From positions 769 to 64,768 of the IMG/VR virus record IMGVR_UViG_3300033489_000009: DNA of 64,000 nucleotides. One strand, 5' to 3'. The position numbers and the translations under genes are program-made. The notes under the pieces are model-generated. The model ran no database searches. It was given only the letters and a program-made list of their open reading frames with translations, and had not been told where the DNA came from. This DNA is from a virus. Of this stretch, positions 14,714-61,821 are shown in pieces; the stretch's first letter is position 1, and every line of letters starts with the position of its first letter.

Positions 14714-14776
14714 TGTTGATCTTCTTTCGGTTGGTGGTCCCCGGGTAGCGGGTTCGCTCCCGGACGATTGCTGGGG

Positions 14777-15532: not shown

Positions 15533-15612
15533 CAGTAGCCCACCAGGACGGTGTGCACGGCGGCGGGATCCCTTCTCGGGGACGGAGATCAGGGGCGGAC
15601 GCTCCGGCAGCG

Positions 15613-22409: not shown

Positions 22410-22470
22410 CCACTACTGCCAGCCGGCCAACCCCGACCGAGTGACCCACGAAGGGCCCTTGGGCCCCACG

Positions 22471-22509
22471 TGTAGACGGATCTACAGATCACGTGTAGAG
22501 TGTTCTACA
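22471..22509 (+). promoter_or_regulatory. Leaderless promoter overlapped by two palindromic operators
   Basis: TAGACG-N17-TAGAGT; TGTAGA-N4-TCTACA at 22471-86 and 22494-509; ATG at 22509. Confidence 0.8.
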
Positions 22510-25045: not shown

Positions 25046-25767
25046 CTAGGGGTCCTGTCGAGGCGGTCCCGCACGGAGCGGACCTCCGGGTAGTAGGTGT
25101 CCTCCCAGTCGCCGCGTCCATACTCGGCGCCTCTCGACCCACCCAGAGAGGACACCCGCAGCCGATCTCGAGGTATGACCCCACCGAATGACATTGCATA
25201 GGCGGGATGAAGTGGAAGGTCGTGCAGTGCCGCGTACGCCCACACGTCGGCAGACCTCCACCTGATGATCGGCCTGCATGATGTCGCCGTTACTACCCCG
25301 TGGACCGCAGCTGACATCCCGCGCGCCCGCGACTCGTCGGCCCGGAGCCCGGTGATTCGCCTCGGGCTCTCATGCTCCTCCAGCCACCGGTACGGGTTCG
25401 GGCTGGCGATCCCGTACTCACGGTAGGGGGTTGGCCACCGCGCGAGGTAGGCGTCGGCGACGGACTGGCAGTCCGGGTTGCGTAGCCTGTCCGTCCCTTC
25501 CCTGGCCCCGTATGTGACGTATATCAGCTCTATGTCTAGGTCGCGGGCGAGGTGAGCGACCGTGACCGAGTCGCGACCCCAGGAGACTCCGATGTGACAG
25601 GGACCGGCGGCGGCAAACCCTGCGATGCAGGTATGGGCTGCCTCGGCGAGCCGGTCCAGCCTGCGAGCGATGTGGGACGCCCGGACGGTGGCCGCGTCGT
25701 ATCGGGCCAGCCTGGACCACACGGCCCGGTCGTCGCCGGTGAGCCGCGGCGAGTCGATGAGAGCCAT
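25042..25767 (-). CDS. cysH: CysH-like (PAPS reductase family) protein of type IV-B systems
   Basis: PP-loop SWGRDS, ITGLRADESRAR, RPIIRW..ADVWAY...HDLPLHPAY. Confidence 0.88.
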   Translation of the reverse strand: MALIDSPRLTGDDRAVWSRLARYDAATVRASHIARRLDRLAEAAHTCIAGFAAAGPCHIGVSWGRDSVTVAHLARDLDIELIYVTYGAREGTDRLRNPDCQSVADAYLARWPTPYREYGIASPNPYRWLEEHESPRRITGLRADESRARGMSAAVHGVVTATSCRPIIRWRSADVWAYAALHDLPLHPAYAMSFGGVIPRDRLRVSSLGGSRGAEYGRGDWEDTYYPEVRSVRDRLDRTPR

Positions 25768-26492
25768 CAGACGGCCATCCCAGGGGTGACGGGCATCTTG
25801 CGGGTGCCATGCCAGTAGGGGGCCCTGACTGCGCCCGGGACGCCGCGCCCGACGGGGGCCGGGAAGTCGCGGTTCATCCATGCGTCCCGGTCGGCGGGGC
25901 CACCCTCCTGGACCTCGACCTTGAGGACGCGGCCGTTCCCGTGCCCGGTGACCCGGCCGAGGGCCCGGAGCCTGGTCAGGAGGCTGGCGGTGGCGTCCTG
26001 GTCGCCGAGCGCCCACCACGTGACATGGGTGACGAGACGCCCCGGGTAGGTGATGTTGCGGGCCTTGTGCGCGCCGAGCCCATCATGATGCCGGGCATCG
26101 GTCGTGTATCGGGCGTACTCCTGGGTGGGTGGCTTCTTGCGGATCTCGACGGCGGTGGTCCCGTGCTCGGTAAGGACGGCCCGTGAGCAGCACCAGCCCC
26201 ACACGGTGCCGTCGGCGGCAAGCAGGGCCGGATTAGTGCCGGCCGGTGCGGGTCTGGTCCAGGTGGCCAGCGGGACCCTGAAGTCCGCGCACCGGTCCAC
26301 GGTGAGCGGCGGCAGCACAACCCCGGACTCGCGGGCAGCCAGGTAGGCGCAGTACGCGAGCGGCCCGTCCAGATGCATCGGGTCCGCGACAGTGATCACC
26401 GGGTCGGCGATCGTGGCGACCACCCGGAACGGCCGCCACGCCGGGGACGCCACCGTGTCGGCGACATCCCCGACGCGCACGACCCTGCTCAC
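25767..26492 (-). CDS. csf3: Type IV Cas5-like subunit Csf3
   Basis: HLDGPL, W..S.A, and a C-terminal G-loop LGRVTGHGNGRV...W...R..P...RAPYWH. Confidence 0.85.
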   Translation of the reverse strand: MSRVVRVGDVADTVASPAWRPFRVVATIADPVITVADPMHLDGPLAYCAYLAARESGVVLPPLTVDRCADFRVPLATWTRPAPAGTNPALLAADGTVWGWCCSRAVLTEHGTTAVEIRKKPPTQEYARYTTDARHHDGLGAHKARNITYPGRLVTHVTWWALGDQDATASLLTRLRALGRVTGHGNGRVLKVEVQEGGPADRDAWMNRDFPAPVGRGVPGAVRAPYWHGTRKMPVTPGMAV

Positions 26493-27406
26493 GCCCGGAC
26501 CTGCAGCAGCGCCCGGATCGCGTCAGCGTGACCACTCAGGTGGTCGACGTACCGGGCCGCCGCCGCGGACACGTCGCCGGTGAGCTCGGAGGTGTCGGAG
26601 GACACGACAGCGCACCGGCCGAAACCCTGCGCGCCCCTCGCTCCCAGCCGCCACACGCCGCCCGCAGTGACCCGGGTCAGGGCCGCACACAGGGCGTCGA
26701 CCTCGGCAGGGACCGCCGCGTCGACACCGACCTCGAACGCCCACAGGGACCCCGCCTGGATCACCTGCATGTCGTAGATCATCTGCGTTGATGCGGGAGC
26801 TGCATCCCCGAACATGGCCTCCGCGACCAGCCGGTCCACCGAAGAGCCGGTCACGTCGTGGCGGGTCCCGAACTCTTCCCCCATCCAGTCGACCGCGCGC
26901 ATCCCGGCGGACGGGTCACGCATCACGGTGGCCGGGATCCGCCACTCATTCTCCCGGCAGGCCAGGTGCGCGTTGGATACGCGGAGGCTGCCGCGGACGA
27001 TGTCCGACCCCAGCGAGTAGCCGAGCAGCGGCAGGGACGGCAGGAGCGTGTGCCGCTCCGCCATCGCCCGCAGGTCGGTTTGTGCGCCGGTCTCCGTCAA
27101 TGCCCCACCGGACCACAGGAGGTCGACGATCGCCTTCGGGAGACCGTTGTCGGGGACCTGCAGGGTGTCGACGGTGATCCAGGCGAGGGCATCCCGGATG
27201 GCGTGCCGGATCGAGTTGCCGGACACGAACGGGGTGCGGCGACGCTCCCCGTCCGGGCCGACGGAGTCCTGCATGCGCACCAGGGCGGTGTTACCGGCGG
27301 TGCCTGCGCCGTGGTGGATCGGGTCGAGGGCGCGGAGGGTGACGGGGATGCGGGCCGTGACGGTCCGCTGGTAGGTGCCGGCCCCCGCCTCGATGGTGGC
27401 AGTCAT
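26489..27406 (-). CDS. csf2: Type IV Cas7-like backbone Csf2
   Basis: LDPIHHG..TAGNT..R, PFVSGNSIRH.IR, LWSGGAL, LPLLG, QMIY..Q....G and LGARGAQGFGRC G-loop. Confidence 0.9.
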   Translation of the reverse strand: MTATIEAGAGTYQRTVTARIPVTLRALDPIHHGAGTAGNTALVRMQDSVGPDGERRRTPFVSGNSIRHAIRDALAWITVDTLQVPDNGLPKAIVDLLWSGGALTETGAQTDLRAMAERHTLLPSLPLLGYSLGSDIVRGSLRVSNAHLACRENEWRIPATVMRDPSAGMRAVDWMGEEFGTRHDVTGSSVDRLVAEAMFGDAAPASTQMIYDMQVIQAGSLWAFEVGVDAAVPAEVDALCAALTRVTAGGVWRLGARGAQGFGRCAVVSSDTSELTGDVSAAAARYVDHLSGHADAIRALLQVRA

Positions 27407-27852
27407 CAGAACATGGCTCCTGTGTCGTCGGTGGCTGCGGGCGCTGCGGATGTCTTGGTGGCCTTGTCGGCGCGCTTGTCGGCGCGGCGGAGACGCACCA
27501 TCGCCGCGATGTAGACGGCATCCCTTTCTGCGATCCGGCGCCACCGGGCGAACGTGACCGGGTCGGCCAGTGCGGCCTCGATCCCGGCGACCGTCCGGCC
27601 TGTGTGCTCAGGGAGTGTCGCCACCTGCAGTTTCCCGGACATGACGGTGACCATGTCCCGGATGCTGGTGGCGCGCGCTGCCGCAGCGGTCAATGCCGTG
27701 GTGGCGCGCGGCCACCAGTGGGCGACACCGATCGTCGCGACGTCGGCGGCGCCGAGCATCGCGTCGAGCATGTCCTCGGCGACGACAGCGAGAACGTCGT
27801 CGGGGACGTTGGGTGGGAGCCGGTCAGGCCGCGTAGCGGTCGGCGAGGTCAC
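27406..27852 (-). CDS. cas11: Type IV-B small subunit Cas11
   Basis: 148 aa all-helical protein (HWWPR..TAL..AAARA) between csf1 and csf2, the canonical IV-B position. Confidence 0.7.
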   Translation of the reverse strand: MTSPTATRPDRLPPNVPDDVLAVVAEDMLDAMLGAADVATIGVAHWWPRATTALTAAAARATSIRDMVTVMSGKLQVATLPEHTGRTVAGIEAALADPVTFARWRRIAERDAVYIAAMVRLRRADKRADKATKTSAAPAATDDTGAMF

Positions 27853-28561
27853 GGATGGTCTCCTTCGTGGTCATGTGCAGCGCGAGCTGCAGTAGAGGTG
27901 AGTTGGCGTGTGGTGCGACCGTCGGCGACCAGCGCCGCCATGCGGTCAGCCCGTCCCTGGTCAGGGCCGGGACGGTTGGGGTGACGGCGTGGATACTGTC
28001 CGGGTTGTGTCCAGCGAGGCGTAGCGCGGCGCATGCCCCGATCAGAGCCCCGTACTCGGTGGGGGTGGCGTCGACGACGCATCCCTCGATCCGGGCCAGG
28101 ACCAGGGCCGCGCCGGGCGCGTTGACGGGCGTGTACGGGAGGAGGTGTTTCTGGCCTGAGACGGCGATCGTGACCGCCCATACGTCGTCCGGGGGGTCCG
28201 TGAGTGCGGCGATGATCGCGGACTGGTCCTTGCGGTTGCAGAGGTGTAGCCGGCCATCGGATGGGTATGGGGCGGATGGTGCCCCCGTCGGGAGGATGGT
28301 GGCGGCGGTGGTGAGGATCGACCACATCCGTAGTGTCTGCGGCGGTTTCCCGGCGAGGGCCCACGCGCACGGCTCGCACACCGTCGACAGGTCCGGGCGG
28401 GCCGCGGTGAGGATGTCGAAGTTCTTGCCGAGCGCATCCCGCGCCCGTAGGTGCCGGTGGTGGGTCACCCCGCACACCACGCACCCGGCGTCGGCGGCGA
28501 TCGCCTTCGGGTGGGATGGCCCACCGGCTGCGTCCCACGCCATCCGGACCGCCGTCAGCAT
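27824..28561 (-). CDS. csf1: Type IV large subunit Csf1 (Cas8-like)
   Basis: CVVCG...LG.NF...CEPCAWAL.GKPP.TLRMWS and W.V.IA.SGQKH.LPY..VN motifs. Confidence 0.85.
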   Translation of the reverse strand: MLTAVRMAWDAAGGPSHPKAIAADAGCVVCGVTHHRHLRARDALGKNFDILTAARPDLSTVCEPCAWALAGKPPQTLRMWSILTTAATILPTGAPSAPYPSDGRLHLCNRKDQSAIIAALTDPPDDVWAVTIAVSGQKHLLPYTPVNAPGAALVLARIEGCVVDATPTEYGALIGACAALRLAGHNPDSIHAVTPTVPALTRDGLTAWRRWSPTVAPHANSPLLQLALHMTTKETIRDLADRYAA

Positions 28562-29238
28562 GCCGGCACCTGGGCTGGCGCTGGGCGGGCGAGGATGAGA
28601 CCGCACCCGAAACTCTTGTTCCGGCCTACACCCTCGGCCATGAGCGCGTGCATGGCCGGCTCGTCGCAGACCCGGCCCTCGAATCGCAGCAGTGTGTGAT
28701 TCGAATGCTGGACCCGGCCCTCCTTCACCCTGCGGCCGGTCAGGTGCCATGCCCCGGCCATGGTCACGTCGAGCCCGTCGAGGATCCCCGCGAGCCTGCC
28801 CGCCAGCACCTCCACCATCGCCTCCGGCGGGCGGACCGTATGCCGCCGTTTCTCCGACCGGGCGGAGAGTTTCCCCGGGATCTGCCCTGCCGCGACCAGC
28901 TCGCATTCCCGGACCCACTGACTGTGCGACTGGCCTGACTGGCCTGAGTCCATCACGACGGCCCCCGATATCAGGGCCCCGGCGGTCGGCCACCAGTACG
29001 GGCTGTGGGTGGTGTTGATCGCCCACCCTCGGGGCCAGTCCTCACGGGTGATGGGCCGGTCGTGGCGGACGATCAGGACCCTCGGCTTAGGTATGGCCCA
29101 CAGGACGGGCCGGGGCTGCTCCCCAGCGAGGGCGGCCTGGGTGACCAGGTCGTGGAGATGCTTGACGTCCGCCGACCGGGGATCCCGGTCGGTGATCTGC
29201 ACCGTGGTGAGTATCAGTGGGCTTCCTATCGTGTCCAT
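28555..29238 (-). CDS. cas6e: Cas6 (Cas6e-like) RAMP endoribonuclease
   Basis: N-terminal D..HLH, VLW, and C-terminal RFEGRV.D..AM..LM.EGVGRNKSFGCGLI G-loop. Confidence 0.85.
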   Translation of the reverse strand: MDTIGSPLILTTVQITDRDPRSADVKHLHDLVTQAALAGEQPRPVLWAIPKPRVLIVRHDRPITREDWPRGWAINTTHSPYWWPTAGALISGAVVMDSGQSGQSHSQWVRECELVAAGQIPGKLSARSEKRRHTVRPPEAMVEVLAGRLAGILDGLDVTMAGAWHLTGRRVKEGRVQHSNHTLLRFEGRVCDEPAMHALMAEGVGRNKSFGCGLILARPAPAQVPAC

Positions 29239-29240
29239 GG

Positions 29241-29519
29241 TCAGTTCCCCTCATGGCCGTGCTGGTGTCGGTCGCGCCACGCCTCTAGCTCCACTACGCG
29301 GTCCTCGATGGACGGCGGAGGGACAGGTGCTGCCCGCTGGCCCCGGTACGCCTCGACGTCTCCGCGGCGGTACCGGCGGTGGCCGCGGCCGCGCGCGCCC
29401 CCGGGCGTCTGCGAGTAGGGCAGCTCACGTCTGGGGATGCGCCAGACGGTGACTGGATCGACCTGTAGCAGCTTGGCGACTTCACCGGTGCTGAGGGTCT
29501 CGTCGTCGGTGGCGGGCAT
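29241..29519 (-). CDS. MerR-like/excisionase-type (BldC-like) HTH regulator heading the Cas operon
   Basis: LSTGEVAKLLQVDPVTVWR...TPGG...HRRYRRGDVEAY; AAGGAGAGG RBS. Confidence 0.85.
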   Translation of the reverse strand: MPATDDETLSTGEVAKLLQVDPVTVWRIPRRELPYSQTPGGARGRGHRRYRRGDVEAYRGQRAAPVPPPSIEDRVVELEAWRDRHQHGHEGN

Positions 29520-29537
29520 CCCTCTCCTTGGGATCAG

Positions 29538-29635
29538 TGCAAGGTGTGTGCTGGTCGCAAGGGTAGAGGGAGCGGCATTCACGTCGACATCATCGCGCGC
29601 CCCGTGCAAGCCTTGCAAGGGGTGAAAGGTGTGTG
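29538..29635. promoter_or_regulatory. Divergent control region with repeated (T/C)GCAAG motifs
   Basis: TGCAAGG at 29538, CGCAAGG at 29556, inverted repeat TGCAAG-C-CTTGCA at 29605-17 flanked by CCCC/GGGG; AAGGTGTGTG at 29541 and 29626. Confidence 0.6.
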
Positions 29636-29683
29636 TCAGGATCGTCAGGTGACTTCTCCCGACCGCCTGGCTGGTGGTGCCGC

Positions 29684-30420
29684 GTGACCGTCCCCGCCCT
29701 GCAGCTCGCCGACGTGTGCGAGTCGTGCCGGCAGTGCCCCGGCACCCGGTGGATCCTCGGAGGCGACGGTGAGTCGCCGTTCCTGGTCTGCCAGGGCTGC
29801 GCACCGACCCCCCTGTCAGCCTCCGTCCCGCCATCCCCCAGCACGGTTCCCCCGGCCGTGCCGGCGGGGCGGAGGCCCACCAACCAGACCGCCCGGGCCG
29901 TCGCGATCCAGGCCGCCGGGATCAGCACCGTCGGCGTCAGCCTTTGGGCGCTGACCCGCATCGCCGGCGGCGGCACGCTCCTCGTCCTCGGCGCGGAGGC
30001 CAGCGTCCTTTGCCTCGGCTACGCCGCCCGGGCGTTCGGTGGTGCCAGGTGATCCGGGTCATCGCCGCGGCCGCGGTGTTCGTCGCCGGCTGGCTGGTCC
30101 TCGCGACGCAGGGGGAGGCGATCGCGGCGGCCCTTGAGCGGATCGTGCTGGTGCTGGTCGCAGGCGCCGCTGCCCTCACCGTGATCGTCGTCGGTGGCGT
30201 GGTCCTGGTCCGCCGTCTGGTCAGGCCGAGCGAACAGCCGGCACCGCAGGTCCCGGATCACTCCCAGGAGCTCCCAGCGCTGGGAACTGACTGCGCTCGT
30301 GGCTGCGGCCGACCGGGGACCGTGCTGCTCGCCGGGGCCGGTTCCCTGCCGTTTCTGGTCTGCCAGCGGTGCGCCGACGTGCACACCGGCCGCGTCCAGC
30401 CCCGCGGAGCGCGGCCGTGA
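29684..30420 (+). CDS. Two coupled membrane proteins with a shared Zn motif (29684-30052, 30049-30420)
   Basis: Both have hydrophobic helices and a C..C...PFLVCQ.CA motif; GTGA overlap. Confidence 0.6.
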
Positions 30421-30427
30421 ACCGGCT

Positions 30428-30561
30428 CGTTCCGGAAGTACTCATCCGGAACGGCTGCGTTGTGGCGCCGGATCGGGGAGCGCGTCCTGCACCGATGCCG
30501 TTCCGGATGTCCGTTCCAGCCGTCCGGCCGTCCCGATCGGCTCCCGCCCACTTCCGGAACG
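30428..30561. other. Putative res site of the serine resolvase
   Basis: CGTTCCGGA-AGTACTCA-TCCGGAACG inverted repeat (30428-53); half-sites at 30499, 30512 and 30553; directly upstream of the resolvase. Confidence 0.7.
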
Positions 30562-30580
30562 ACAGCGAGGGGGATCTCAG

Positions 30581-31390
30581 ATGACCATGCTCGGCTACGC
30601 CCGCGTGAGCACCACCGACCAGGACCCTGCCCCGCAGGTCGCGCAGCTGCGCGCCGCGGGCTGCGACCGGGTCTTCGTCGAGTCGGCGTCCGGGTACCGC
30701 GATGACCGGCCCGAGCTGGCCGCGCTCCTGGACTACGCGCGGGACGGCGACGTGATCGTCATCTGGCGCCTCGACCGACTCGCCCGCTCCACCACCCACC
30801 TCCTGTCGCTGTCCGCCGATCTCGACAAGCGCGGGATTGGGCTGAAGTCCCTGTCCGACCCGATCGACACGACCTCGGCGACGGGCAGGTTGGTCTACAC
30901 CCTCCTGGCCGCGATCGCCCAGTTCGAGGGTGACCTGCGCCGGGAGCGCCAGCAGATCGCGTGGGAGGCCGGGAAGCCGAAGGGCCGCCCACCGACGCTG
31001 ACCGGCGGCCAGCGCGACCTCGCCGCCCGGCTCCGCGGTGAGGGCAAGTCGCTGGCCGAGATCGGGCGGGCGGTCGGGGCGCCGAAGACGACGATCCACC
31101 GGCACCTCACCGCGCTCCTGGCCGTGATCAGCGGCCGGCGCACCGCCCCGCTCGCCGTGTCCCTGCTCGCGTTCGCGGTGCTCGCAGGGTTTGGCGTCGT
31201 CTCGATGCTTGCGGTCGCTGCCGGCGCGACGTCGCCGCTGCTGCTGCCCGGGCTGGTGGCCACCGCGCTGACGATGCTGGTCTTACAGGGCTGCACCGCC
31301 AGTGCGCCTGCCGGGGCGCGGGGGCCGGTGAGGGTCCGTCCGCCGGTCCGGATCCGCCCGATCATGCCGATGGCGGTGGCCTGGTCATGA
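30581..31390 (+). CDS. Serine resolvase/invertase with HTH and a C-terminal two-helix hydrophobic extension
   Basis: GYARVST.DQ, RPEL, WRLDRLARS, GRPP and HTH, followed by LAVSLLAFAVLAGFGVVSMLAVAAG and LLLPGLVATALTMLVL. Confidence 0.9.
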   Translation: MTMLGYARVSTTDQDPAPQVAQLRAAGCDRVFVESASGYRDDRPELAALLDYARDGDVIVIWRLDRLARSTTHLLSLSADLDKRGIGLKSLSDPIDTTSATGRLVYTLLAAIAQFEGDLRRERQQIAWEAGKPKGRPPTLTGGQRDLAARLRGEGKSLAEIGRAVGAPKTTIHRHLTALLAVISGRRTAPLAVSLLAFAVLAGFGVVSMLAVAAGATSPLLLPGLVATALTMLVLQGCTASAPAGARGPVRVRPPVRIRPIMPMAVAWS

Positions 31391-32178
31391 CGACTCTGCG
31401 CCTGTCCGACCGCTCCCGCTGGCGTGCGGCACGCACCTTGCAGGACCTCGCCGACCTCACCGCGGCGTGGCTGGCTGGGGAGATCCGGTCGCAGCCCGGC
31501 TACTACGGCCGCGTCGATGTCGACGAGGACCGGGCGCCCGGGCTGACCGCCGCGCTGGTGGCCTGCAACAGGGCCGGGTTCCTCACCCGCACCTCCCAAG
31601 CGAGTTACGTCGGGCCCGGCTACCACGGCGCCACCCGCGCGACCGCGCTGGCCGCCGTGCACGGGTACACCGACAGGGACACCGCCCAGCGCCTGTTCTC
31701 GGCGTCCGTCTGGGCCCCGACCCGGGTCCACGTGTTCATTCACCCCATCGGGGCCGGCCGCCTTGGCGAGGACGCCCGTGAGGTGTCGTGGGCTGACGAC
31801 AGGGCCACCTGCTCATTCGGGGGCTGCGTACCGGTCGGCTACCTGCTGGACGAGTTCGCCGGCTGCTCCCGGCACGTGATCGACGCGCTCGCGCACGCAT
31901 GGTCAGTGACGGTCCTCGACCCGGAGCCGGGCCGGAACACGCTCTGGGCGTGGCTCGCCGAGGCCGTGCCTGCGCTCGCCAAGGGCGCCCGGCCAGTCCC
32001 CATCTCCGGCCACCGCGTGCCCGAGTATCCAGACCGGTGCGGATGCGGCGGGATCCTCCGGCCAGCCGACAGGCCGATCTTCGCTCCCGACGGCGGGGCG
32101 CACCTGATCCTCCGCTGCGATCACTGCGGGATCCAGACCCCGATGGACTGGACCTGGCAGCCAGGGGTTGATCGGTGA
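31387..32178 (+). CDS. DUF6919-like protein of actinomycete plasmids/AICEs
   Basis: W..ARTL.DL..LTA.WL.G....QPGY...L...NRAGFLT..SQ, and C-terminal V..IDP..GRN..LW..L-like motif. Confidence 0.65.
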   Translation: MTTLRLSDRSRWRAARTLQDLADLTAAWLAGEIRSQPGYYGRVDVDEDRAPGLTAALVACNRAGFLTRTSQASYVGPGYHGATRATALAAVHGYTDRDTAQRLFSASVWAPTRVHVFIHPIGAGRLGEDAREVSWADDRATCSFGGCVPVGYLLDEFAGCSRHVIDALAHAWSVTVLDPEPGRNTLWAWLAEAVPALAKGARPVPISGHRVPEYPDRCGCGGILRPADRPIFAPDGGAHLILRCDHCGIQTPMDWTWQPGVDR

Positions 32179-32753
32179 TGGCCACCAGCAAGCACCGGAA
32201 GCCTCCCCGGACCCGGACCACGAAGCGCCGGGGGACGACCAGCACCCGTCTCGTCAAGCCCCGCCGCAAGCGGACGGCGGCCCGCAGTCAGAGGGTCGCG
32301 AACTTTTCCCTCTTCAACATCAACTTCGGCGGTACCGGAAGCGGCCGCGGACGGCGCAAGCGCCGCTTCCAGGGCTTCCTGAAGGGCCTGTTCAAGACCG
32401 GGCGGGAGGTCGGCAAGGGGGTCGGCCGGCACATGCCGCAGGCCGGGTGCCTGAACAGCCCAGGGTCCATCCAGAAGGCTGCGGCCCGTACCGGTGGGCG
32501 GCGGCAGCCCAGCAGAGTCACCGGCGCCGGGGCTGGGGCTGCGGCCACGCTCAGCGCGCGCCGCGGGAGCCGGTCGCCTAGGTCGCGGTTCGCCGCGTCC
32601 ATGCCCGGGGCTGGGGGCCAGGCCGGCACGGACCCGCTGGACACCGACGAGGCGATCGAGAACTGGACCGAACGGACGGGCGAGGCGCCCGGCGGGGCCT
32701 GTCCCTGCGGCGGGATCGCACGACACACCGCTGACTGTGAGGTCTGGCAATGA
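32175..32753 (+). CDS. Basic hypothetical protein
   Basis: Arg/Lys-rich ORF coupled between the DUF6919-like gene and traB. Confidence 0.55.
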   Translation: MMATSKHRKPPRTRTTKRRGTTSTRLVKPRRKRTAARSQRVANFSLFNINFGGTGSGRGRRKRRFQGFLKGLFKTGREVGKGVGRHMPQAGCLNSPGSIQKAAARTGGRRQPSRVTGAGAGAAATLSARRGSRSPRSRFAASMPGAGGQAGTDPLDTDEAIENWTERTGEAPGGACPCGGIARHTADCEVWQ

Positions 32754-34957
32754 ACCTGGACGCGGCCAACGGCCACCACGACGGCAGCGCCCTCGATCTC
32801 GAGGAACGCCTCGAGGTCGACGCCCACGACCTGAAGGATTCCCTCGCCCACGAGCCCGGTCACGGTCTGACCGCCGGGGACCTGGAGGCCGGGCAGGTCG
32901 AGGAGGCGGCCGAGCAGGGCCCGGCCGTCGACCCGCCCGCCCGGCGGTCCGCGGCGGTGGACCGGATCCGGGCAAAGGCGGATGCGCGGCGCCGGCCTCT
33001 GGTCCCGGAGTGGATGGCCACCCAGGTCGGCCGGCGCACGGTCACCCGGATCGCCGCGTCAGCGGCCTGGCACTGGACGCTGTACCGGGTGGTGCACCTG
33101 GTCCCGGACCTGGGGCTCCTCGCCTGGTATGCGGTCGTGGGTGCGGGCCGGTTGGCGTGGGGGTCGGTCCAGTTCGTGGGTGACGGTGAGGCGCGGCCGC
33201 TGCGGAAGTCGGCGATCCTGTCCGACGACCACAAGGCGTACATGCTGCTGGTCCGGGAGCGGAACGCTCGGATCTCCCGCCGGCTGGCCGGCGCGACCAC
33301 CCTCGGGCTCCTCGCCCTGCTGGCGGCCGGCCTGCTCGTGTGGCTGGCGCCCGGCTGGCTCACCGGCCCCGTCACGGTCACGGCGGTCATCGGCCTGGTC
33401 CGCGCTGGCCGACCGGTGGGACGGCCGATCCTGTCCCCGGCGACCGTGAAGTCCACGGTCCCGCGGCTGACGTCGGTGGCGATCGTCCGGGCCCTGGCAG
33501 GGGTCGGCATCGGACCGCTCACCACGGGCGCGGCGAAGGGCGAGACGGCCGAGTGGTTCCCCGAGCCGATCACCAGGACCGCCGTCGGCCATGAGGTCGG
33601 GATCGAACTGCCGCACGGCACGACCGCCGCGGAGGTCGCGGACAAGCGGGAGAAGCTGGCCGCCGGTCTGCGCCGCCCGATCGGCTGCGTGTGGCCGATG
33701 GGTGAGCCGCGGGTCCACCCGGGGCGGCTGACCCTGCACGTCCTGGACGCCCCGATGTCGAAGATGGCGCAGCCGCCGTGGCCGCTCGCGAAGACGGGGC
33801 GGTCCGACGTGTTCAAGCCGATCCTCCTCGGCTGGGACCAGCGTGGACGGCCGGTCACCGTCCTCCTCATGTTCTCGAACCTGCTGGTCGGGTCGATCCC
33901 GAGGCAGGGCAAATCGAGGACGGTCCGGGTCCTCATGCTCGCCGCGAGCTTCGATGTCACCTGCGAGCTGCACGACCACGAGTTGAAGGGCACCGATGAC
34001 GACTCGATGTTGGAGCCGTACCTGCACCGGTACACGACCGGCTCCGGGTCGACCGACACACCGGCGATCGAGTCGGTGATGGCCTCGATCCGGGAGGTCG
34101 CCGGCTACCTCGATCCGCGGGCGAAGACGATCGCCCGGGTCTCCCGGGAGAACCCGGCGCGGTGCCCGGACAAGAAGGTCACCCGCGAGCTCGCCGACGA
34201 CCCGGCCCTGAAGTTGCACCCCGTGATCCTGAAGATCGACGAGGTGCACGAACTTTTCGAGACCGAGTTCGCGGCCGAGGCCGAGCAGAAGCTGACCGCG
34301 ATCATCAAGCGTGGCCCCGCGCTGGGGATCATGCTGATCCTGGCCACGCAGCGGCCGGACGCGAAGTCGATCCCTACGGCGATCTCGGCGAACGTTGGCC
34401 TGCGGTTCTGCCTGCGGGTCGGCGGGTGGAAGCCGAACAACCTCGTCCTCGGGGACGGCGCCTACGCGATGGGCATGCGGGCCGACCTTTTCACCGAGGA
34501 CGACAAGGGCTGCGGTCTGCTCCGGGACGGTGGGACGACCGCGCAGACCGTCCGGGGCGCCGACATCGACGGCCCGGACGCGGAGCCCATCGCCCGCCGC
34601 GCGCTGGCTATGCGCACCGCGGCAGGGGTGCTGTCCGGGGATGCGGTCGGCGAGCGCATCGAGCTCGAGCGGGACCAGCTGGAGGTCGTCTTCGACTGCA
34701 TCCGGGTCTTCCGGGACTGCCCCAGCGCCGACGAGTCTGTGTGGCTGCACCAGCTGGAGGAGCTGCTCGCGGAGTGGGCGCCGAGCGAGTACGGGGACCT
34801 GGAGGCACCTTGGTTGGGGGACCGGCTCCGCGCGCTTGGGATCCCGACGATGGCGCAGCGGAAACGGAACATCGACGGGGAGCAGGTCAACCGTGCGGGT
34901 GTGTCCCTGGCGGTTCTTCGGAAGGCCGTGGAGGGCCGCGAGGACGAGGGTCGGTAG
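32750..34957 (+). CDS. traB: TraB-like FtsK/SpoIIIE conjugative DNA translocase
   Basis: N-terminal TM segments, Walker A GSIPRQGKS, Walker B LKIDEVHELF, LATQRP, RFCLRV, and a C-terminal wHTH-like domain. Confidence 0.88.
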   Translation: MNLDAANGHHDGSALDLEERLEVDAHDLKDSLAHEPGHGLTAGDLEAGQVEEAAEQGPAVDPPARRSAAVDRIRAKADARRRPLVPEWMATQVGRRTVTRIAASAAWHWTLYRVVHLVPDLGLLAWYAVVGAGRLAWGSVQFVGDGEARPLRKSAILSDDHKAYMLLVRERNARISRRLAGATTLGLLALLAAGLLVWLAPGWLTGPVTVTAVIGLVRAGRPVGRPILSPATVKSTVPRLTSVAIVRALAGVGIGPLTTGAAKGETAEWFPEPITRTAVGHEVGIELPHGTTAAEVADKREKLAAGLRRPIGCVWPMGEPRVHPGRLTLHVLDAPMSKMAQPPWPLAKTGRSDVFKPILLGWDQRGRPVTVLLMFSNLLVGSIPRQGKSRTVRVLMLAASFDVTCELHDHELKGTDDDSMLEPYLHRYTTGSGSTDTPAIESVMASIREVAGYLDPRAKTIARVSRENPARCPDKKVTRELADDPALKLHPVILKIDEVHELFETEFAAEAEQKLTAIIKRGPALGIMLILATQRPDAKSIPTAISANVGLRFCLRVGGWKPNNLVLGDGAYAMGMRADLFTEDDKGCGLLRDGGTTAQTVRGADIDGPDAEPIARRALAMRTAAGVLSGDAVGERIELERDQLEVVFDCIRVFRDCPSADESVWLHQLEELLAEWAPSEYGDLEAPWLGDRLRALGIPTMAQRKRNIDGEQVNRAGVSLAVLRKAVEGREDEGR

Positions 34958-35060
34958 TGGCTGTCTGCCCTACCGGTAGGGGTGCCTCTACCACCCGGCC
35001 CTACCGGTAAACCCGCAGGTCAGAGGCCATTTCAAGCAAGATCGCAGACTGGTAGGGCAG
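34953..35060. repeat. CTACC/GGTAG repeat cluster downstream of traB
   Basis: Palindrome CCCTACCGGTAGGG (34968-81), CCCTACCGGTA (34999-35009), further CTACC/GGTAG copies. Confidence 0.6.
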
Positions 35061-35100
35061 GGGTCGCGCAGGGCCCCGAAACCGCTCCTGGAGGGGAATC

Positions 35101-35337
35101 GTGCACGTGCTCGTTTTGGCCGCTACCGCTACCGGCGTCGTCGTCGTGCTGGCCGCCGGGTACCTGGGGTGGTGCTGGCTGGTCCCCGGGTACACCTGCC
35201 ACGCTTGCGGCGGTGGCGGGTCTCGCCGGACGCGGATCCTGGGCCGGGAGCGGACCTGCCGGTCGTGTCGGGGGGTCGGTGAGCGGCCCCGGCTGGGCAT
35301 GTATGTGCTCCGCGCGTTGCGGGAGGGGAGCCGGTGA
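35101..35337 (+). CDS. Small membrane protein with CxxCxGxG zinc finger
   Basis: TM helix then CHACGGGG...CRSCRGVG; typical of genes following traB in AICE-like elements. Confidence 0.65.
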   Translation: MHVLVLAATATGVVVVLAAGYLGWCWLVPGYTCHACGGGGSRRTRILGRERTCRSCRGVGERPRLGMYVLRALREGSR

Positions 35338-36470
35338 GTGTGTTGTCGTTGCCGAGGCGTCGGGTGCCCCTGGAGACCGCACGTCGGCTGGCCGGCCAGC
35401 TCGACCGGCCCCAGCCGGCAGATGATCGGGCGAGGCGTCGGCTGGCCGAGGTCGCTTCCCGCGGCGGGACGTGGGCGATGGTCGTGCCCGTCGTCCTGGT
35501 CAACACGTTCGCTGGGATCGGGCAGACGCTGTGGGCGATGGACCACATCTCCCCGGCGCTCGGTGTGCCCGCGGTGCTCACTGCGGTCGGGTTCGCGGCG
35601 ACCCTGGAGTCGATCGCCGTCTACCTGGCCTACCAGGCGCACCGGGCGCTGATGGCCGGTGATGCGGCGCTGCGGCTGCGGGTCGCCTCGTATGCGGCTG
35701 CCGGGACGGTCGGGGCGTTGAACTACTCCCACTGGTCGGCCGACTGGCAGCCGACCGCGGTGGCGATCACGTACACGGGGTTCTCGGTGATCTCGCCGTG
35801 GCTGTGGTCGATCCAGTCGAGGTCGATGCACCGCGCCGAGCTGCGGGCTGAGGACCTGATCGACCCGAGGACGGTCCGGTTCTCGATGGCCCGGTGGACC
35901 CTGTATCCGGTCCGGACGTTCACCGCGTTCCGGGCCGCGGTGTGGGCTGGGGTGGTCGATCCTGCGGTGGCGATCCGGCTGGCCGATCGAGTCGATCCCG
36001 TCCGGTCGATCGACCCCGATCCGGGGGTGTCGATCGAGGCCGGGCACCCCGATCGGATCGACCCCGACATCGAGTCGGCGGCCGTCCCGGATCGGGTCCG
36101 GATCGAGGCCTCGATCGAGTCGATCCAGTCCGCTGCGGATCGACCCGCCGGACCGCCGGTGATCGAAGCTCCGAAGTCGATCGGATCGACCCCGATCCCG
36201 GCCGGGAGATCGACCAGGAAGAAGCCGACCCGGCAGCCCCGGACGGTCGATCAACTGGCCGTCGAGTTGGCCGCTGAGATCGAGTCGGGTGGCCTCGATC
36301 TGGCACCGTCGGCTGAGGCGATCCGGCGGCGGCTCAAGTGCGCTCCCGCCACTGCCAGGGAGCTGCGGGATCGGCTCGCGAGTGGGGACGCTCCAGCCGG
36401 ATCGGCCCCGGTGTTGGAAGTTACCGACGACGCTCCAAGCGCGACCCAGGAAGGAACACTGACCCCATGA
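35334..36470 (+). CDS. DUF2637 / Spd-like membrane spread protein with C-terminal HTH
   Basis: Four TM helices, ES.A.YL..AH.AL..GD.A..LR.ASY, GALNYSH; C-terminal PSAEAIRRRLKCAPATARELRD. Confidence 0.75.
   Translation: MSVLSLPRRRVPLETARRLAGQLDRPQPADDRARRRLAEVASRGGTWAMVVPVVLVNTFAGIGQTLWAMDHISPALGVPAVLTAVGFAATLESIAVYLAYQAHRALMAGDAALRLRVASYAAAGTVGALNYSHWSADWQPTAVAITYTGFSVISPWLWSIQSRSMHRAELRAEDLIDPRTVRFSMARWTLYPVRTFTAFRAAVWAGVVDPAVAIRLADRVDPVRSIDPDPGVSIEAGHPDRIDPDIESAAVPDRVRIEASIESIQSAADRPAGPPVIEAPKSIGSTPIPAGRSTRKKPTRQPRTVDQLAVELAAEIESGGLDLAPSAEAIRRRLKCAPATARELRDRLASGDAPAGSAPVLEVTDDAPSATQEGTLTP
35850..36255. repeat. Dense GATCGA/TCGATC repeat cluster inside the spd-like gene
   Basis: More than a dozen copies of GATCGA or TCGATC (often GATCGACCC) in about 400 bp, in both orientations. 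Confidence 0.75.
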
Positions 36471-36766
36471 CCCAGCACACGCCGCTGCCAGGACCGATCG
36501 CCGTAGACCCGTACAGCGAGCTCCTTGACCTAGCGAACGCCCAATCCCCGGGCGGTGACATCACCCCGGCCGGGGAAGTGGCCCGGGCCATGCTCGGCGC
36601 AGCCCTGGACGGGATCCAGGTCGGCTCCTACGACGAGCAGGTCATCGCGTGGCTGCAGGGGCGGGATGCGTCGACGATTGCGGTGGTGGCGTCGTTGTTG
36701 CGGCGGGCGTGGACGGCGGGTCTGGCGGCTGGGCGGATGGAGATCCGGGAAGAGCGGACCCGCTGA
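36467..36766 (+). CDS. Hypothetical protein typical of actinomycete plasmids
   Basis: GSYDEQVIAWL...DASTIAVVASLLRRA motif; AGGAAGGA RBS. Confidence 0.6.
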   Translation: MTQHTPLPGPIAVDPYSELLDLANAQSPGGDITPAGEVARAMLGAALDGIQVGSYDEQVIAWLQGRDASTIAVVASLLRRAWTAGLAAGRMEIREERTR

Positions 36767-36773
36767 AGGCTAG

Positions 36774-36826
36774 TTGACGCCATCGTTTATTACCGCTAGA
36801 GTTGAGTTAACGACATCGGATAACTC
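36774..36826 (+). promoter_or_regulatory. Principal-sigma promoter with downstream inverted repeat
   Basis: TTGACG (36774-79), N17, TAGAGT (36797-802); GAGTTA-N11-TAACTC at 36804-26. Confidence 0.8.
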
Positions 36827-36842
36827 GACACCGGAGGACACC

Positions 36843-37196
36843 GTGACCGACTACTTCGCAGCCAAGGCCCGCAGCGTCTTCACCGCAGCCTCCGGCGACC
36901 CGGACCTCAGCGGCCCGCTCGCCGCCTGGGCACGATACGCGCACGGTGTCGGCGACTCCCGCCGCGGAGTCATCGTCAGCGAGACCGGCGAGATCCTGGC
37001 CGAGACGCGCCACACCCCCGCCACGATCAGCACCCCCGGCGCCACCTACGCCACGTCGGGCGGCGAGCGCGTGCAGGACCGCGAGCTGGGCCTGGCCATG
37101 GCCGCGTTGGAGAGCCGCACGGGCCGCCACTGCATCCACGTCAAGTACTGGCAGGTCTGCACCGGGGCGAGCCGCTTCACGCCGGCCTCCCGGTGA
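36843..37196 (+). CDS. Hypothetical protein
   Basis: GGAGG RBS and GTG start, first gene after the promoter. Confidence 0.7.
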   Translation: MTDYFAAKARSVFTAASGDPDLSGPLAAWARYAHGVGDSRRGVIVSETGEILAETRHTPATISTPGATYATSGGERVQDRELGLAMAALESRTGRHCIHVKYWQVCTGASRFTPASR

Positions 37197-37399
37197 CCAC
37201 CGAGACCAAGCGTCGTCCCGGCCGCCCCACCGTGGGCGGCCGGGTCACGGTCTCCCTGGGCTCCGAACGGGTGGCCAGGCTGAAGGCTGCCGCCGACCTC
37301 GCTGGGGTCAGTTTCCCGGTGATGCTCCGCAGGTGCATCGACACGGCACTGGCAGGGCGGGATGGCCACGAGCAGGAGAACCCAGGGGGGCGGTTGTGA
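37193..37399 (+). CDS. Ribbon-helix-helix-like DNA-binding protein
   Basis: PGRPTVGGRVTVSLG..RVARLKAAADLAGVSFPVMLRRCIDTAL. Confidence 0.65.
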   Translation: MTTETKRRPGRPTVGGRVTVSLGSERVARLKAAADLAGVSFPVMLRRCIDTALAGRDGHEQENPGGRL

Positions 37400-38034
37400 C
37401 GGTGAGGGCCGGGATCGGTGCGGTGGTGGCGGGCTGTGTCCTGCTGGCCGCCTGCGGCAGCGGTAGTACCGAGCACGGTGACAGCTCCGGTCCGACGGTG
37501 CCCGCGACGGGTGCGCTGGCCGGGCTCACGGTCGCTGCCGAAGCGCACGCCGACACCTACCAGCGGGACGCGTTCGGGCAACGGTGGAAGGACGTCGACG
37601 GGAATGGGTGCGGGCAGCGGGACGACGTCCTGACCCGGGACCTGACCGGGATCACCCGCCGGGGCCGGTGCGTCGTGGTCGCAGGCGCACTGGTCGACCC
37701 GTACACCGGCCAGCAGGTGGCGTTCGCCAAGGCCCGCGCGAGTGAGGTGCAGATCGACCACATCGTCGCTCTGGCTGAGGCGTGGCGGTCCGGGGCCTGG
37801 TCCTGGACCCCGGACCGGCGGGAGGCCTACGCCAACGACCTGACCGTCCTGCAGGCCACAGCGGGCCGGGTGAACCAGGTGAAGGGCGATGAGGATGCGG
37901 CGGGCTGGTCACCGGCCGGCGGCGCGCGGCGGTGCCGGTACGCCGGCATGGTTGTGCAGGTCAAGGCCCGTTGGGGCCTGACCGCTGACCCGGCTGAGGT
38001 CGAGGCGCTGGCCGCGATGTTGGGGGACTGCTGA
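37396..38034 (+). CDS. Lipoprotein HNH nuclease (DUF1524 family)
   Basis: Signal peptide with lipobox LLAAC; YQRDAFG..W.D.D.NGC..R..VL.RD, QIDHIVALAEAW.SGA, ND...L.A....N..KGD. Confidence 0.88.
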   Translation: MTVRAGIGAVVAGCVLLAACGSGSTEHGDSSGPTVPATGALAGLTVAAEAHADTYQRDAFGQRWKDVDGNGCGQRDDVLTRDLTGITRRGRCVVVAGALVDPYTGQQVAFAKARASEVQIDHIVALAEAWRSGAWSWTPDRREAYANDLTVLQATAGRVNQVKGDEDAAGWSPAGGARRCRYAGMVVQVKARWGLTADPAEVEALAAMLGDC

Positions 38035-39546
38035 TGGTCGCTCGGCCGCCAGTGATGGAGGACATTCCGTCGCCCGTCCCCAACAGGTGGCGGATCCTCG
38101 CCTACGGCGCTGGCACCGACCCGCCATACACGGTCGCGAACCATGTGGGCGCATCCTCCACGTGGCCAGGAGCCGTCAACCACGTGCTCCCCGCCGAAGC
38201 GTGGCTGGACGAGATCGTCGTGACTGGCCTGCTCCATCTGGAGGACATGGGCGGCCACTGGTACCTCGGTATCGGGGACTGCAAGTTCTCCCTGACCGTA
38301 GACGGCGATCGGGTCCGGGTCCTCCTTTACGAGGGTGAGGTCGAGTCGTGACCGCGAGGCGTCCGTTGCGGCTGGTCGGTCCCGTCGGGCCCGCCCCGCA
38401 GGCAGGGCCTTGGACCCGGCCGGTGACGGTCCAGCTCCAGGCCGGTGCGTGGACGGCGCTCGGGTTCGCCGCGCTGATCGACGGGAAGCGGCCCGGCGAG
38501 TGGCTGTCGGAGCGGGTTGAGCAGCTGCTCGCAGACGCTGTCACCGCGGATCCCGAGCTGGCGGGGATGGTCGCCAGCGCACTGACCTACCAGCAGGGGA
38601 GGACGGTCGGGGATGAGAAGCCTGATCAGGTTCATGCTTCGGCGGGCACGGCGGAGGGGTGATCCGATTCCGGCGGGGACCGTCTGCGATCTCGGCCCGT
38701 TCGAGCCGGTCGCTGACCCGAATGTCGTGCTCTTCGACCACCTGTGCGAGGTGCTGGATCCGGCCCGGCGTGAGGCGTTCCTCGCGCTCCGTCCAGTGCC
38801 CGTGGATCCGCCCATCACGGTCGCGGCGGGTCGGCTCCGGTCGGGAGTGCGAGATCCTCAGGTCACCTGCATGATCCGCTTCGGTCGGGGCGTGACGCTG
38901 GTCGCGCTGAGCACCGGGGACGTCCATCTCGTCAATGACCGGGTATCCGGTGCGCTGGCCAGCCAGCAGGGGAGGACCACTGACCATGGCTGATGAGCAG
39001 GGTGGTGTCTGGATCCGGACGGTACCCGACATGGAAGGCATCTACCGTCCGGTCGTCGAGCTCGACGACGACACTTCACACCCGATCGACGACGTTACTG
39101 CGGTCGCCTACGCCCGGGCGATCCTCGTAGCGGTCGCCTACGCCGAGTACGACGCTGCGGTGATCCGGCAGATGACGACGGTCTGCAACCAGGAGGCGGC
39201 GGTTGATCTGGTCCGTCGGATGCGCGGCGACCGGCCGCTACTGGTCTGGCCGGCCCCGCTGGAGCTCGAGCCGGGCGTCTCCGCCCGGACGGGGGAGGCG
39301 TTCCTGGCTGTGAGCCTGCACGGCCTGCGCGTCGGCCAATGGGACATGGCGCAGGCCCGCGAGCACGCCTTGGGTGTCCTGGAGGCCGTCGAGGTTGCGC
39401 CGTTGGATTCGGCGTACCTGCGGGCACTGCGGGCAATCGATGTCGAGGAGGGGCGGGCCAGGGTGGTTGTGGACGATCTGGCCCGGTACCGGATGCTGGA
39501 GCAGGAGGGGGGAGTCGAATCGTGGCTGACCTGGTCGAGTTCCTGA
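38034..39546 (+). CDS. Four hypothetical ORFs (38034-38351, 38348-38662, ~38613-38993, 38986-39546)
   Basis: Consecutive overlapping plus-strand ORFs with globular composition. Confidence 0.55.
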
Positions 39547-40762: not shown

Positions 40763-41086
40763 ATGATCCACGAGATCCACAACACCGACGAGAACGGCAA
40801 CCCGGCTGGCGGGAAGACCGTGTCAACCGGGCCGAGTACCGGGCTGAGCATCGAATGGCAGAACGGGCCACTCGCTGTGGACGGGGTGCGCAAGGACCCG
40901 AACGGCGCATTCGTAGAAGACGTGATCGCCGCCGCCATCGGGCGGATCGGGTTCTACCAGGCCGGCAAATTCCATTGCCTTGAGAACGCAGCCGCTCTGG
41001 GACACCTGCTGGCCGCTGCGGAGATCCTGGCCGAGCGGACCCGAGACCGGGATCGGCGCCAGGTCGAGGGAACTCATCAGAGGTGA
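40763..41086 (+). CDS. tad1: Tad1-like anti-defence nucleotide sponge (107 aa)
   Basis: WQNGP...NGAFVEDVI...RIGFYQ..KFHCLENAAAL..L..A...L.ERT.DR.RR.VEGTH parallels the Tad1 pattern FQ.GP...NG...EDL...RL..FQ...F.C.EN..A...L..A..WL..RT..R..R.VEGT; strong GAGAGGGAGG RBS. Confidence 0.8.
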   Translation: MIHEIHNTDENGNPAGGKTVSTGPSTGLSIEWQNGPLAVDGVRKDPNGAFVEDVIAAAIGRIGFYQAGKFHCLENAAALGHLLAAAEILAERTRDRDRRQVEGTHQR

Positions 41087-41640
41087 TCGGTGCGGTCCTA
41101 CTGCGGCCACTCCCCCCCGGCCGCGGAACCCGGCATTCCAGCTACGGGACGGTACGGGTCCTGGCCGTGCTCGGCCGGCAGCCCGGCTGGGTGCACGTCA
41201 CGCTGCCGACCCGCCCCAACGGCAGCAGCGGCTGGGTCAAGGCAGGTGACGTGAAGGTCGAGCAGGTCACCACGTCGATCGCCGTGGACCTATCGGCCCG
41301 GACCATCACCGTCCGGGTCGGCGGCGGGAAGGCCACCACCGGCAAGGCCGCGGTCGGCTCCACCCGGAACCCGACCCCGACCGGAAGTTTCTTCGTCACC
41401 GACCGGGTACGTCCCGCCGACCCGGGCGGCGCCTACGGCTCGTTCGCGCTCGGGTTGTCCGCCCACTCCGACACCCTGTCCGAGTTCGGTGGCAGCGACG
41501 GGCAGGTCGGGATCCACGGCACGAACGATCCGGCCAGCCTGGGCAGGGCCGTCTCCCATGGGTGTGTCCGCGTCCCGGATGGTGTTGTCGCCCTGCTGCG
41601 GCAGGTGCCTCTGGGGACCCCGGTCGTCGTCACCGCCTGA
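41083..41640 (+). CDS. L,D-transpeptidase (YkuD family), no signal peptide evident
   Basis: LPTRPNGSSGWV, AVG...PTPTGSFFV, GIHGT...GRAVSHGCVRV catalytic His/Cys motif. Confidence 0.92.
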   Translation: MIGAVLLRPLPPGRGTRHSSYGTVRVLAVLGRQPGWVHVTLPTRPNGSSGWVKAGDVKVEQVTTSIAVDLSARTITVRVGGGKATTGKAAVGSTRNPTPTGSFFVTDRVRPADPGGAYGSFALGLSAHSDTLSEFGGSDGQVGIHGTNDPASLGRAVSHGCVRVPDGVVALLRQVPLGTPVVVTA

Positions 41641-45799: not shown

Positions 45800-45812
45800 G
45801 CGGCCCCCCCTC

Positions 45813-60561: not shown

Positions 60562-61820
<1,259 letters not shown>

Positions 61821-61821
<1 letters not shown>

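Follow-up and report, generated by a model that had tools for sequence, protein, structure and literature searches.

The 64,000-bp stretch of DNA analysed here (the window) corresponds to positions 769 to 64,768 of the IMG/VR virus record IMGVR_UViG_3300033489_000009. It belongs to the genome of a tailed phage and carries, between 29.7 and 36.8 kb, a run of plus-strand genes that includes an FtsK/TraB-like DNA translocase. TraB is a one-protein DNA pump, with which Streptomyces plasmids pass double-stranded DNA between cells. With a probability of about 0.55, the block is a functional conjugation system of the TraB-clt-Spd type, such as those of the Streptomyces venezuelae plasmid pSVH1 and of the integrative and conjugative elements of actinomycetes (AICEs), located in an early-region operon of a temperate tailed phage.

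A TraB-like module in a complete phage genome

The window comprises 64,000 of the 64,944 bases of a one-contig assembly, and the runs containing this genome are soil metagenomes. The first 127 bp of the contig are identical to its last 127 bp, so that the genome closes as a circle of 64,817 bp, which may be replicative phage DNA. The genome is that of a complete tailed phage: besides the head, tail, packaging and lysis genes listed in Table 1, PHROG searches name a head-tail adaptor, a tail-fibre-like protein and several DNA methyltransferases. The G+C content is about 0.71 along the whole window, and the block shows no compositional break.

The gene calls within the block rest on third-position G+C content, on Pfam, PHROG and NCBIfam searches and on the gene calls of a contig from a related phage (L007); the minus-strand open reading frames (ORFs) that overlap the run are in frames with low third-position G+C. 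A reading made earlier from the letters of the window (the sequence-only reading) had placed resolvase, DUF6919, TraB-like, zinc-finger and DUF2637 genes in one coupled plus-strand run within a full phage. This is borne out by the gene calls and by six 4-bp start/stop overlaps read from the sequence (GTGA or ATGA, at 30049, 31387, 32175, 32750, 35334 and 36467).

The translocase aligns with the motor of pSVH1 TraB over 311 residues with 29% identity (99 bits, pairwise E 2e-25 in BLASTP), and a weak N-terminal local match to the same protein (E 0.07) overlies a PxxPxW segment. The Walker A motif GxxPxxGK (GxxPxxGKS here), the DE of Walker B and a TQ pair are invariant across 23 relatives, and the RP that follows is nearly so. 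In the fold ranking of the AlphaFold model (mean predicted local distance difference test score, pLDDT, of 78), the best match is the FtsK motor (E 3.5e-14, template modelling score, TM-score, by target of 0.63–0.69), followed by the coupling protein TcpA of pCW3 and by EccC; the profile matches in the PDB also include FtsK. The hydrophobic segments at residues ~114–132 and 178–217, together with long N-terminal helices in the model, indicate membrane association. A separate model of the C-terminal 106 residues (mean pLDDT 78.7) shows three helices and a beta hairpin, and the C-terminus of one relative gives a weak match to DUF3631 (RepAM; E 4e-4). The NCBIfam model of EccCb reaches 25 bits, far below its cut-off. 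An identity as chromosomal FtsK was rejected, as the score with NF007615 is 21.5 bits (cut-off 1566) and the gene lies on a phage.

The 143-bp gap that follows the translocase gene contains CCCTACCGGTA twice and its inverted form CTGGTAGGG once, and these repeats are kept in L007 although the spacers between them differ. Such clusters are common in the family: words of 8 nt with at least three exact copies occur within 160 bp 3' of the stop codon in 46% of 50 loci, compared with 4.6% of background windows, and those with at least four copies in 26% compared with 0.8%. The repeat words vary between lineages. As a positive control, the same script finds GACCCGGA five times just 3' of traB in pSVH1. 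In the part of PMC4170104 that deals with it, clt is described as carrying 8-bp TraB recognition sequence (TRS) repeats. The repeat cluster after the translocase stop is therefore likely to be a clt-like candidate site, placed as are the TRS repeats of pSVH1.

A further word was noticed in the same region. CTGACC[AT]G, in either orientation, lies within 220 nt 3' of the translocase stop in 28 of the 50 loci, pSVH1 included, as against 0.04 expected per window of the scan; in the phage it is found as the reverse complement at ~35015–35024. Among possible explanations for this word is the sps palindrome of SpdA proteins (PMC4170104).

Three predicted proteins encoded downstream of the gap complete the module. 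The 78-aa protein has one N-terminal transmembrane (TM) helix and two CxxCxGxG zinc-finger motifs. In 33 of the first 50 loci, among them an AICE-type plasmid and the Pseudonocardia element pPaSha2 discussed below, a homologue is encoded on the translocase strand, downstream of that gene and mostly no more than ~130 bp away. When neighbour families were counted by iterated searches across 133 translocase loci, this small zinc-ribbon membrane protein was present in 91 and DUF2637 proteins in 81. The DUF2637 match of the window protein itself lies below the cut-off (E 6.7e-4, 20 bits against 22.8), whereas of 19 close homologues 9 match DUF2637 with E <= 0.001. The profile of its family matches SpdB2 of pSVH1 over 113 columns with a probability of 84.6% (E 6.8e-6; pairwise BLASTP E 0.014), and TM segments are present. 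The family of the 99-aa ORF reaches 58 of the 133 loci transitively, with first-round phmmer matches in four of them (L053, L080, L117 and L121); in AICE-type loci its homologues also lie downstream of the translocase. From its distribution, the conserved core of the predicted module is thus made of the translocase, the repeat cluster, the small zinc-ribbon protein, the DUF2637 protein and the 99-aa ORF.

The genes at the start of the run have another distribution. Among the 133 loci, DUF6919, the basic 192-aa protein and the two upstream zinc-ribbon ORFs occur only in the window and L007, and the resolvase additionally in one other locus (L035). The resolvase, the res-like site and DUF6919 consequently fall outside the conserved transfer core, and the resolvase and DUF6919 are, judged by this distribution, lineage-specific additions. 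The label of AICE/plasmid-type module given to the whole run by the sequence-only reading thus holds for the translocase, the clt-like repeats, the zinc-ribbon gene and the DUF2637 gene; it does not extend to the resolvase with its site or to DUF6919.

The resolvase also matches phrog_125 (E 6.8e-53) and has a helix-turn-helix (HTH); as a small serine recombinase it may act as a resolvase or as an invertase. A start at 30194, which would give a 398-aa ORF, was rejected as too long in favour of the ATG at 30581, in agreement with the 269-aa call in L007. Residues ~187–240, after the HTH, form a strongly hydrophobic C-terminal stretch that is unusual for a resolvase. Directly upstream of the gene, at 30429–30560, lie four of the eight TCCGGAAC words of the 64-kb window, in both orientations; three of these four are kept in L007. 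An inverted repeat (30443–30462 and 30490–30509) is found inside the same gap. This cluster fits a putative res site or autoregulatory operator, in keeping with the res site that had been predicted; position 29684, at which the block had been made to begin, is an ORF start and not a res site. The Atlas model of DUF6919 agrees with its own family (TM-score 0.64/0.86) and resembles the C-terminal regulatory domain of eukaryotic MTHFR, which binds S-adenosylmethionine (TM-score by query 0.57–0.59); the protein may thus bind S-adenosylmethionine rather than take part in transfer.

From these features we infer DNA binding at the repeats, transfer and helper roles for the partner proteins, and the process could be pictured as follows. 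The membrane-anchored TraB-like ATPase would load on the phage's own circular DNA through a putative C-terminal winged-helix domain, the loading site being the CCCTACCGGTA repeats just 3' of the translocase gene. Acting as an FtsK-like ring, the ATPase would then drive the circle, double-stranded and unprocessed, into the next cell or hyphal compartment. Helper roles in spreading and at the membrane or septum would fall to the small zinc-ribbon membrane protein, the SpdB2-like DUF2637 protein and the 99-aa protein, and the resolvase with its upstream site would most likely resolve multimers of the circle.

Table 1. Positions of the transfer module, its neighbours and the phage genes in the window
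Feature	Position	Strand	Remarks
Large terminase	1341-3917	-	PHROG match
Tyrosine recombinase/integrase (Xer-like)	21522-22379		N-terminal SAM-like domain; PHROG match
Cas5/Csf3	25767-26492	-	E 7e-29
Cas7/Csf2	26489-27544	-	E 6e-79
Cas11/Csf4-like	27406-27852	-	E 6e-11
229-aa ORF of the Cas cassette	27849-28538	-	
Cas6	28555-29238	-	E 8.5e-10
Small HTH_17 (MerR/excisionase-type) regulator candidate	29241-29519	- (divergent)	PF12728 E 1.8e-7 on ORF 29241-29834; ATG 29517-29519
Putative divergent promoter/operator region	29520-29683		Two 25-nt direct repeats (29526-29550, 29611-29635); inverted repeat; CCTTG/CAAGG palindromes
122-aa protein	29684-30052	+	N-terminal Cys-rich zinc-ribbon-like part; C-terminal hydrophobic segments; called from third-position GC and hydropathy
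123-aa protein	30049-30420	+	Two N-terminal TM segments; C-terminal Cys motif; GTGA overlap with preceding gene
Gap with res-like/operator site	30421-30580		160 bp
Resolvase (small serine recombinase)	30581-31390	+	269 aa; PF00239 E 1.9e-37
DUF6919 protein	31387-32178	+	263 aa; PF21897 E 1.3e-27
Very basic protein, probably disordered	32175-32753	+	192 aa; C-terminal Cys/His cluster; ATGA overlap (32750-32753) couples it to the translocase
FtsK/TraB-like translocase	32750-34957	+	735 aa
Gap with clt-like site	34958-35100		143 bp
TM and zinc-finger protein	35101-35337	+	78 aa
DUF2637/SpdB2-like membrane protein	35334-36470	+	378 aa
Small ORF	36467-36766	+	99 aa; third-position GC frame; ATGA-coupled to the DUF2637 gene
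Endolysin	44984-45865		PHROG match
Tape measure	50545-52605		PHROG match
Major tail protein	54045-54794		PHROG match
Head maturation protease	60562-61821		PHROG match
Portal	61821-63917		PHROG match

Related modules in plasmids, AICEs and phages

The nearest characterised system is that of pSVH1 (NC_007431), a 12.6-kb rolling-circle plasmid, whereas the carrier studied here is a 65-kb tailed phage. Both encode an FtsK-like TraB with the Walker A GxxPxxGKS (735 aa in the phage and 772 aa in pSVH1), both have short repeats clustered just 3' of its stop codon, and both encode in the same operon a membrane protein, SpdB2 in pSVH1 and its putative counterpart in the phage. They differ in the repeat word (GACCCGGA in pSVH1, CCCTACCGGTA in the phage) and in the position of the SpdB2-like gene, which is upstream in pSVH1 and downstream in the phage. 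The phage also has a small zinc-ribbon partner that was not found in pSVH1, and no GntR repressor was found in the phage.

Closer translocases are encoded by AICE-type elements, exemplified by a plasmid of Streptomyces sp. NBC_00562 (NZ_CP107792) and a chromosomal element of Micromonospora chersina. Their translocases are 38–40% identical to that of the phage over 86–90% of the length, and each is followed by a small zinc-ribbon gene. In NZ_CP107792, a DUF2637 gene is annotated in the same operon and a repeat cluster lies 3' of the translocase gene; at the M. chersina locus, the DUF2637 label comes from a transitive search. Unlike the phage, such elements are ~12–18 kb long, replicate by Prim-Pol, carry GntR and NUDIX regulators and have no virion genes. 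The AICE set held by an 18-kb Streptomyces plasmid includes GntR, NUDIX, DUF2637, a zinc-binding protein, FtsK, Prim-Pol and an integrase, and that of the Micromonospora chromosomal element GntR, the translocase, the small gene, Prim-Pol and HTH_17. Among the features by which AICEs are recognised (an integrase, RepSA, RepAM or Prim-Pol, Tra and a size of 10–25 kb), the element in the window has Int and Tra; being a 65-kb phage, it does not belong to this class. A Prim-Pol label obtained for the window was rejected, as the transitive chain behind it passed through a fused stop-to-stop ORF.

The translocase has more than 580 matches in species-representative genomes, mostly from mycelial actinomycete genera, and tblastn matches 48 actinomycete plasmids, including pSVH1. 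A Prim-Pol gene near the translocase is typical of AICEs. Among the best 80 genome matches, Prim-Pol lies within 10 kb in 51 and virion genes in two; the Prim-Pol label here comes from the same transitive search that gave the false match in the window. No match to the translocase was obtained by tblastn in 50,697 phage genome records at E <= 1e-5, and when the phage collection was searched at the DNA and protein levels for the block and the translocase, default thresholds yielded nothing. Relaxing the threshold to E <= 1 brought up remote P-loop matches alone, which lie in FtsK-like genes of Bacillus phages, Staphylococcus phages and jumbo phages of Streptomyces.

The search for other phages with the module, which the sequence-only reading had called for along with a phylogeny of the translocase, led in IMG/VR to 45 viral contigs with relatives of the translocase. 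At least 22 of these have a structural-gene match within 10 kb of it, which is a terminase, portal, protease or capsid match in 10; these searches were seeded from two phages, so that the counts are lower bounds, and the tape-measure matches are the least specific. A further phage was found among plasmids. The best match in the plasmid database is pPaSha2 of Pseudonocardia alni (CP052773; 39% identity, 88% coverage; loci L001 and L003), a 41.9-kb circle deposited as a plasmid, which encodes a terminase, a portal, an HK97 protease, a capsid, a holin and Bet together with DUF2637, the translocase and the small zinc-ribbon gene. It is, by its gene content, a full tailed-phage genome. In contrast to the window, its DUF2637 gene is upstream of the translocase and it has neither resolvase nor DUF6919. 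As pPaSha2 comes from a cultured host, it provides a practical system for testing capsid-free spread.

In a tree of 131 translocases, the phage-labelled sequences are scattered among AICE copies, and for 13 of them at least 11 changes are required by well-supported branches; the tree was built with FastTree only and has several long branches, and the phage and AICE labels are rough. Within these limits of rough labels and a quick tree, the scatter suggests repeated exchange between AICEs and phages. The pair formed by the window and L007 adjoins Prim-Pol-linked loci (L006, L055 and L053).

L007, a 64,136-bp contig from another metagenome and study that is also in IMG/VR, shows that the block is an integral part of this phage lineage. 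Its translocase is 92% identical to that of the window, its DNA is 88% identical over positions 29656–38040, with shorter shared stretches up to ~41.9 kb, and identity reaches 93% at the integrase, which lies upstream of the module there too; the swap is confined to the cassette that separates integrase and block. The ratio of non-synonymous to synonymous substitution rates (dN/dS) between the two phages is 0.13–0.39 for all six genes tested (0.21 for the translocase, 0.13 for the resolvase), indicating purifying selection.

Elements that unite phage and conjugative properties have been described before. In the passages of PMC3583192 and PMC4170104 that concern them, the plasmid-phages pZL12 and pFP4 are presented as conjugating and as forming infective particles; the corresponding passage of Thoma et al. 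(PMC4170104), which cites pFP4, states that plasmid-phages, as episomes, both propagate and conjugate, and that they form infective particles as well. In pZL12/phiZL12 (GQ919031) and pFP4, as in the window's element, a single circular DNA carries the genes of a tailed virion together with a transfer gene of the FtsK/SpoIIIE type. The Tra protein of pZL12 (pZL12.71c), however, is not detectably similar to the translocase of the window (BLASTP E 0.41), nor does the DUF2637 profile match its membrane neighbour. The pZL12 record has ParA/ParB, a GntR regulator and the FtsK-like gene, whereas the window encodes an Xer-like tyrosine recombinase together with a resolvase, and Par genes were not found in it. 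The phage in the window is thus a hybrid of the same kind as pZL12 and pFP4, with a tra lineage of the pSVH1/AICE type, a recombinase pair instead of Par genes and an uncultured host.

Alternatives to a conjugative role

Several results weigh against a conjugation system. The translocase is missed by the Pfam family FtsK_SpoIIIE (PF01580: E 0.24, 11 bits against a cut-off of 24) and reaches only 18.4 bits with the NCBIfam model plasmid_TraB (NF041214), whose cut-off is 800. All top matches of its C-terminal domain are winged-helix DNA binders, but they are weak (E 0.007–0.2, TM-score ~0.4–0.48). The three repeat copies of the window, taken alone, are at the 4.6% background level, and the 84.6% probability of the SpdB2 link is not decisive. 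No GntR-type Kor/TraR repressor was found in the window, nor were Par or Rep families among its scanned ORFs, some small ORFs being outside the scan. The element comes from soil metagenomes, has an uncultured host and is known from its sequence alone. Finally, an FtsK-like pump with loading sites would serve vertical segregation equally.

The main rival is built on this last point. According to it, the pump, loaded at the repeats, clears or moves phage circles through closing septa into each compartment or spore and amounts to a private segregation system of the FtsK/SffA type, in which the resolvase deals with multimers. The FtsK motor being the best structural match of the translocase would suit this function, as would the conservation of a small membrane partner protein and the co-transcription of the resolvase and its res-like site with the pump. 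ParA/ParB were not found, though a free circle was assembled and the phage carries a type IV Cas cassette of a kind typical of plasmids. Yet the nearest characterised homologue, TraB of pSVH1, is a transfer protein that is accompanied by Spd-like genes, and the same module occurs in integrating AICEs, which need no segregation system. Vertical maintenance is therefore rather unlikely to be what the module is for, while being the best of the alternatives.

A role in exclusion or defence, in which a membrane ATPase of the FtsK/HerA type blocks or expels the DNA of competing phages or plasmids, is improbable. PADLOC gives weak matches of the translocase to the ATPase parts of mad8 (E 3.6e-9) and SspH (E 5.7e-6), the fold ranking includes HerA defence complexes further down, and among the neighbours are methyltransferases, a GmrSD_C nuclease and the type IV Cas cassette. 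The PADLOC matches, however, span the P-loop core alone (~70–90 residues), and it is in AICEs and plasmids that the closest full-length relatives are found. Defence also gives no reason for the family-wide presence of repeat clusters on the element's own DNA at the 3' end of the gene.

There is a similarly small chance that the block is an AICE fragment which recombination brought in and which the phage does not use. The Prim-Pol-linked nearest relatives in the tree and the scatter of phage copies among AICE copies would be expected of passive cargo. Such cargo agrees poorly with the purifying selection on all six tested genes between the two phages, with the translational coupling of the genes in a phage early operon and with the recurrence of the module in the 45 IMG/VR contigs.

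An assembly chimera, or a nested element with its own att ends, is very improbable, even though the left border of homology to L007 (29656) coincides with the cassette swap: the circle is closed; L007, from a second study, has the module and partly shared genes up to ~41.9 kb; Logan contigs from two soil samples, both of which may be the window's source, span the left junction without difference, while a Logan contig of a sediment sample has L007's version; and the flanks of the block have no common word of 14 bp or more, no att-like direct repeats and four common 12-mers compared with 5.2 in shuffles. The module is therefore not an artefact of assembly, and the concern over a chimera or a separate element that the sequence-only reading had raised falls away.

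Neighbouring features and wider meaning

Upstream of the block, a type IV CRISPR-Cas effector cassette occupies the minus strand (25767–29238); no CRISPR array was found in the window. At the position of this cassette, L007 has ParB_N, PAPS-reductase and GntR genes instead. The two adjacent ORFs at the start of the block (29684–30420) both contain the motif PFLVCQxCA and have their zinc-ribbon and TM parts in reversed order. The first has no family match and the second a weak PspM-like match, far under the cut-off (E 9.6e-5). For the basic 192-aa protein, family, Atlas and structure searches yielded no lead.

Directly 3' of the integrase gene, at 22467–22509, where homology to L007 ends, lie two repeats of 20 nt with the form CACGTGTAGA...TCTACA, for which an attP arm, an operator and a recombination hotspot are possible readings. 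A gap of ~0.9 kb without any called gene (14714–15612) contains three 36-nt hairpin-forming repeats spaced by 45–46 nt and a 24-nt repeat (15033–15246), which are candidates for an origin, a pac site or a regulatory site. At 14097–14367, a minus-strand ORF contains a 12/30/42-nt tandem repeat (6–23 copies) whose translation is a low-complexity stretch rich in Gly and Asp. At 9788–12773, 24032–25045, ~37420–38034 and 41083–41640, the genome encodes three DNA methyltransferases, a nuclease domain of the GmrSD_C type and a secreted L,D-transpeptidase (YkuD) that has SH3 domains. The searches detected no tRNA and no Rfam family.

That phages may also spread by conjugation is already known, and phage-plasmid hybrids were described previously. 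Since the concept is, in the passages cited above, already demonstrated for pZL12 and pFP4, what is gained here is breadth and a different tra lineage rather than a new principle. A broader and more tentative proposal, to which we would give clearly less than even odds, is that phage-AICE hybrids are a widespread class that has arisen many times; that the element in the window would combine spread by virions, TraB-driven transfer of its circle and an array-less type IV Cas cassette directed against plasmids; and that CTGACC[AT]G would be a common and previously undescribed cis element of TraB systems, for example a loading or polarity site.

The family-wide order of translocase, lineage-specific repeat cluster and small zinc-ribbon protein makes the idea of phage conjugation cheaply testable. 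Were the module functional, temperate phages that infect filamentous actinomycetes would have a second route of spread, one that needs no capsid. Receptor-based resistance would be no barrier to it, and prophages, AICEs and plasmids would become harder to tell apart in the main antibiotic-producing bacteria.

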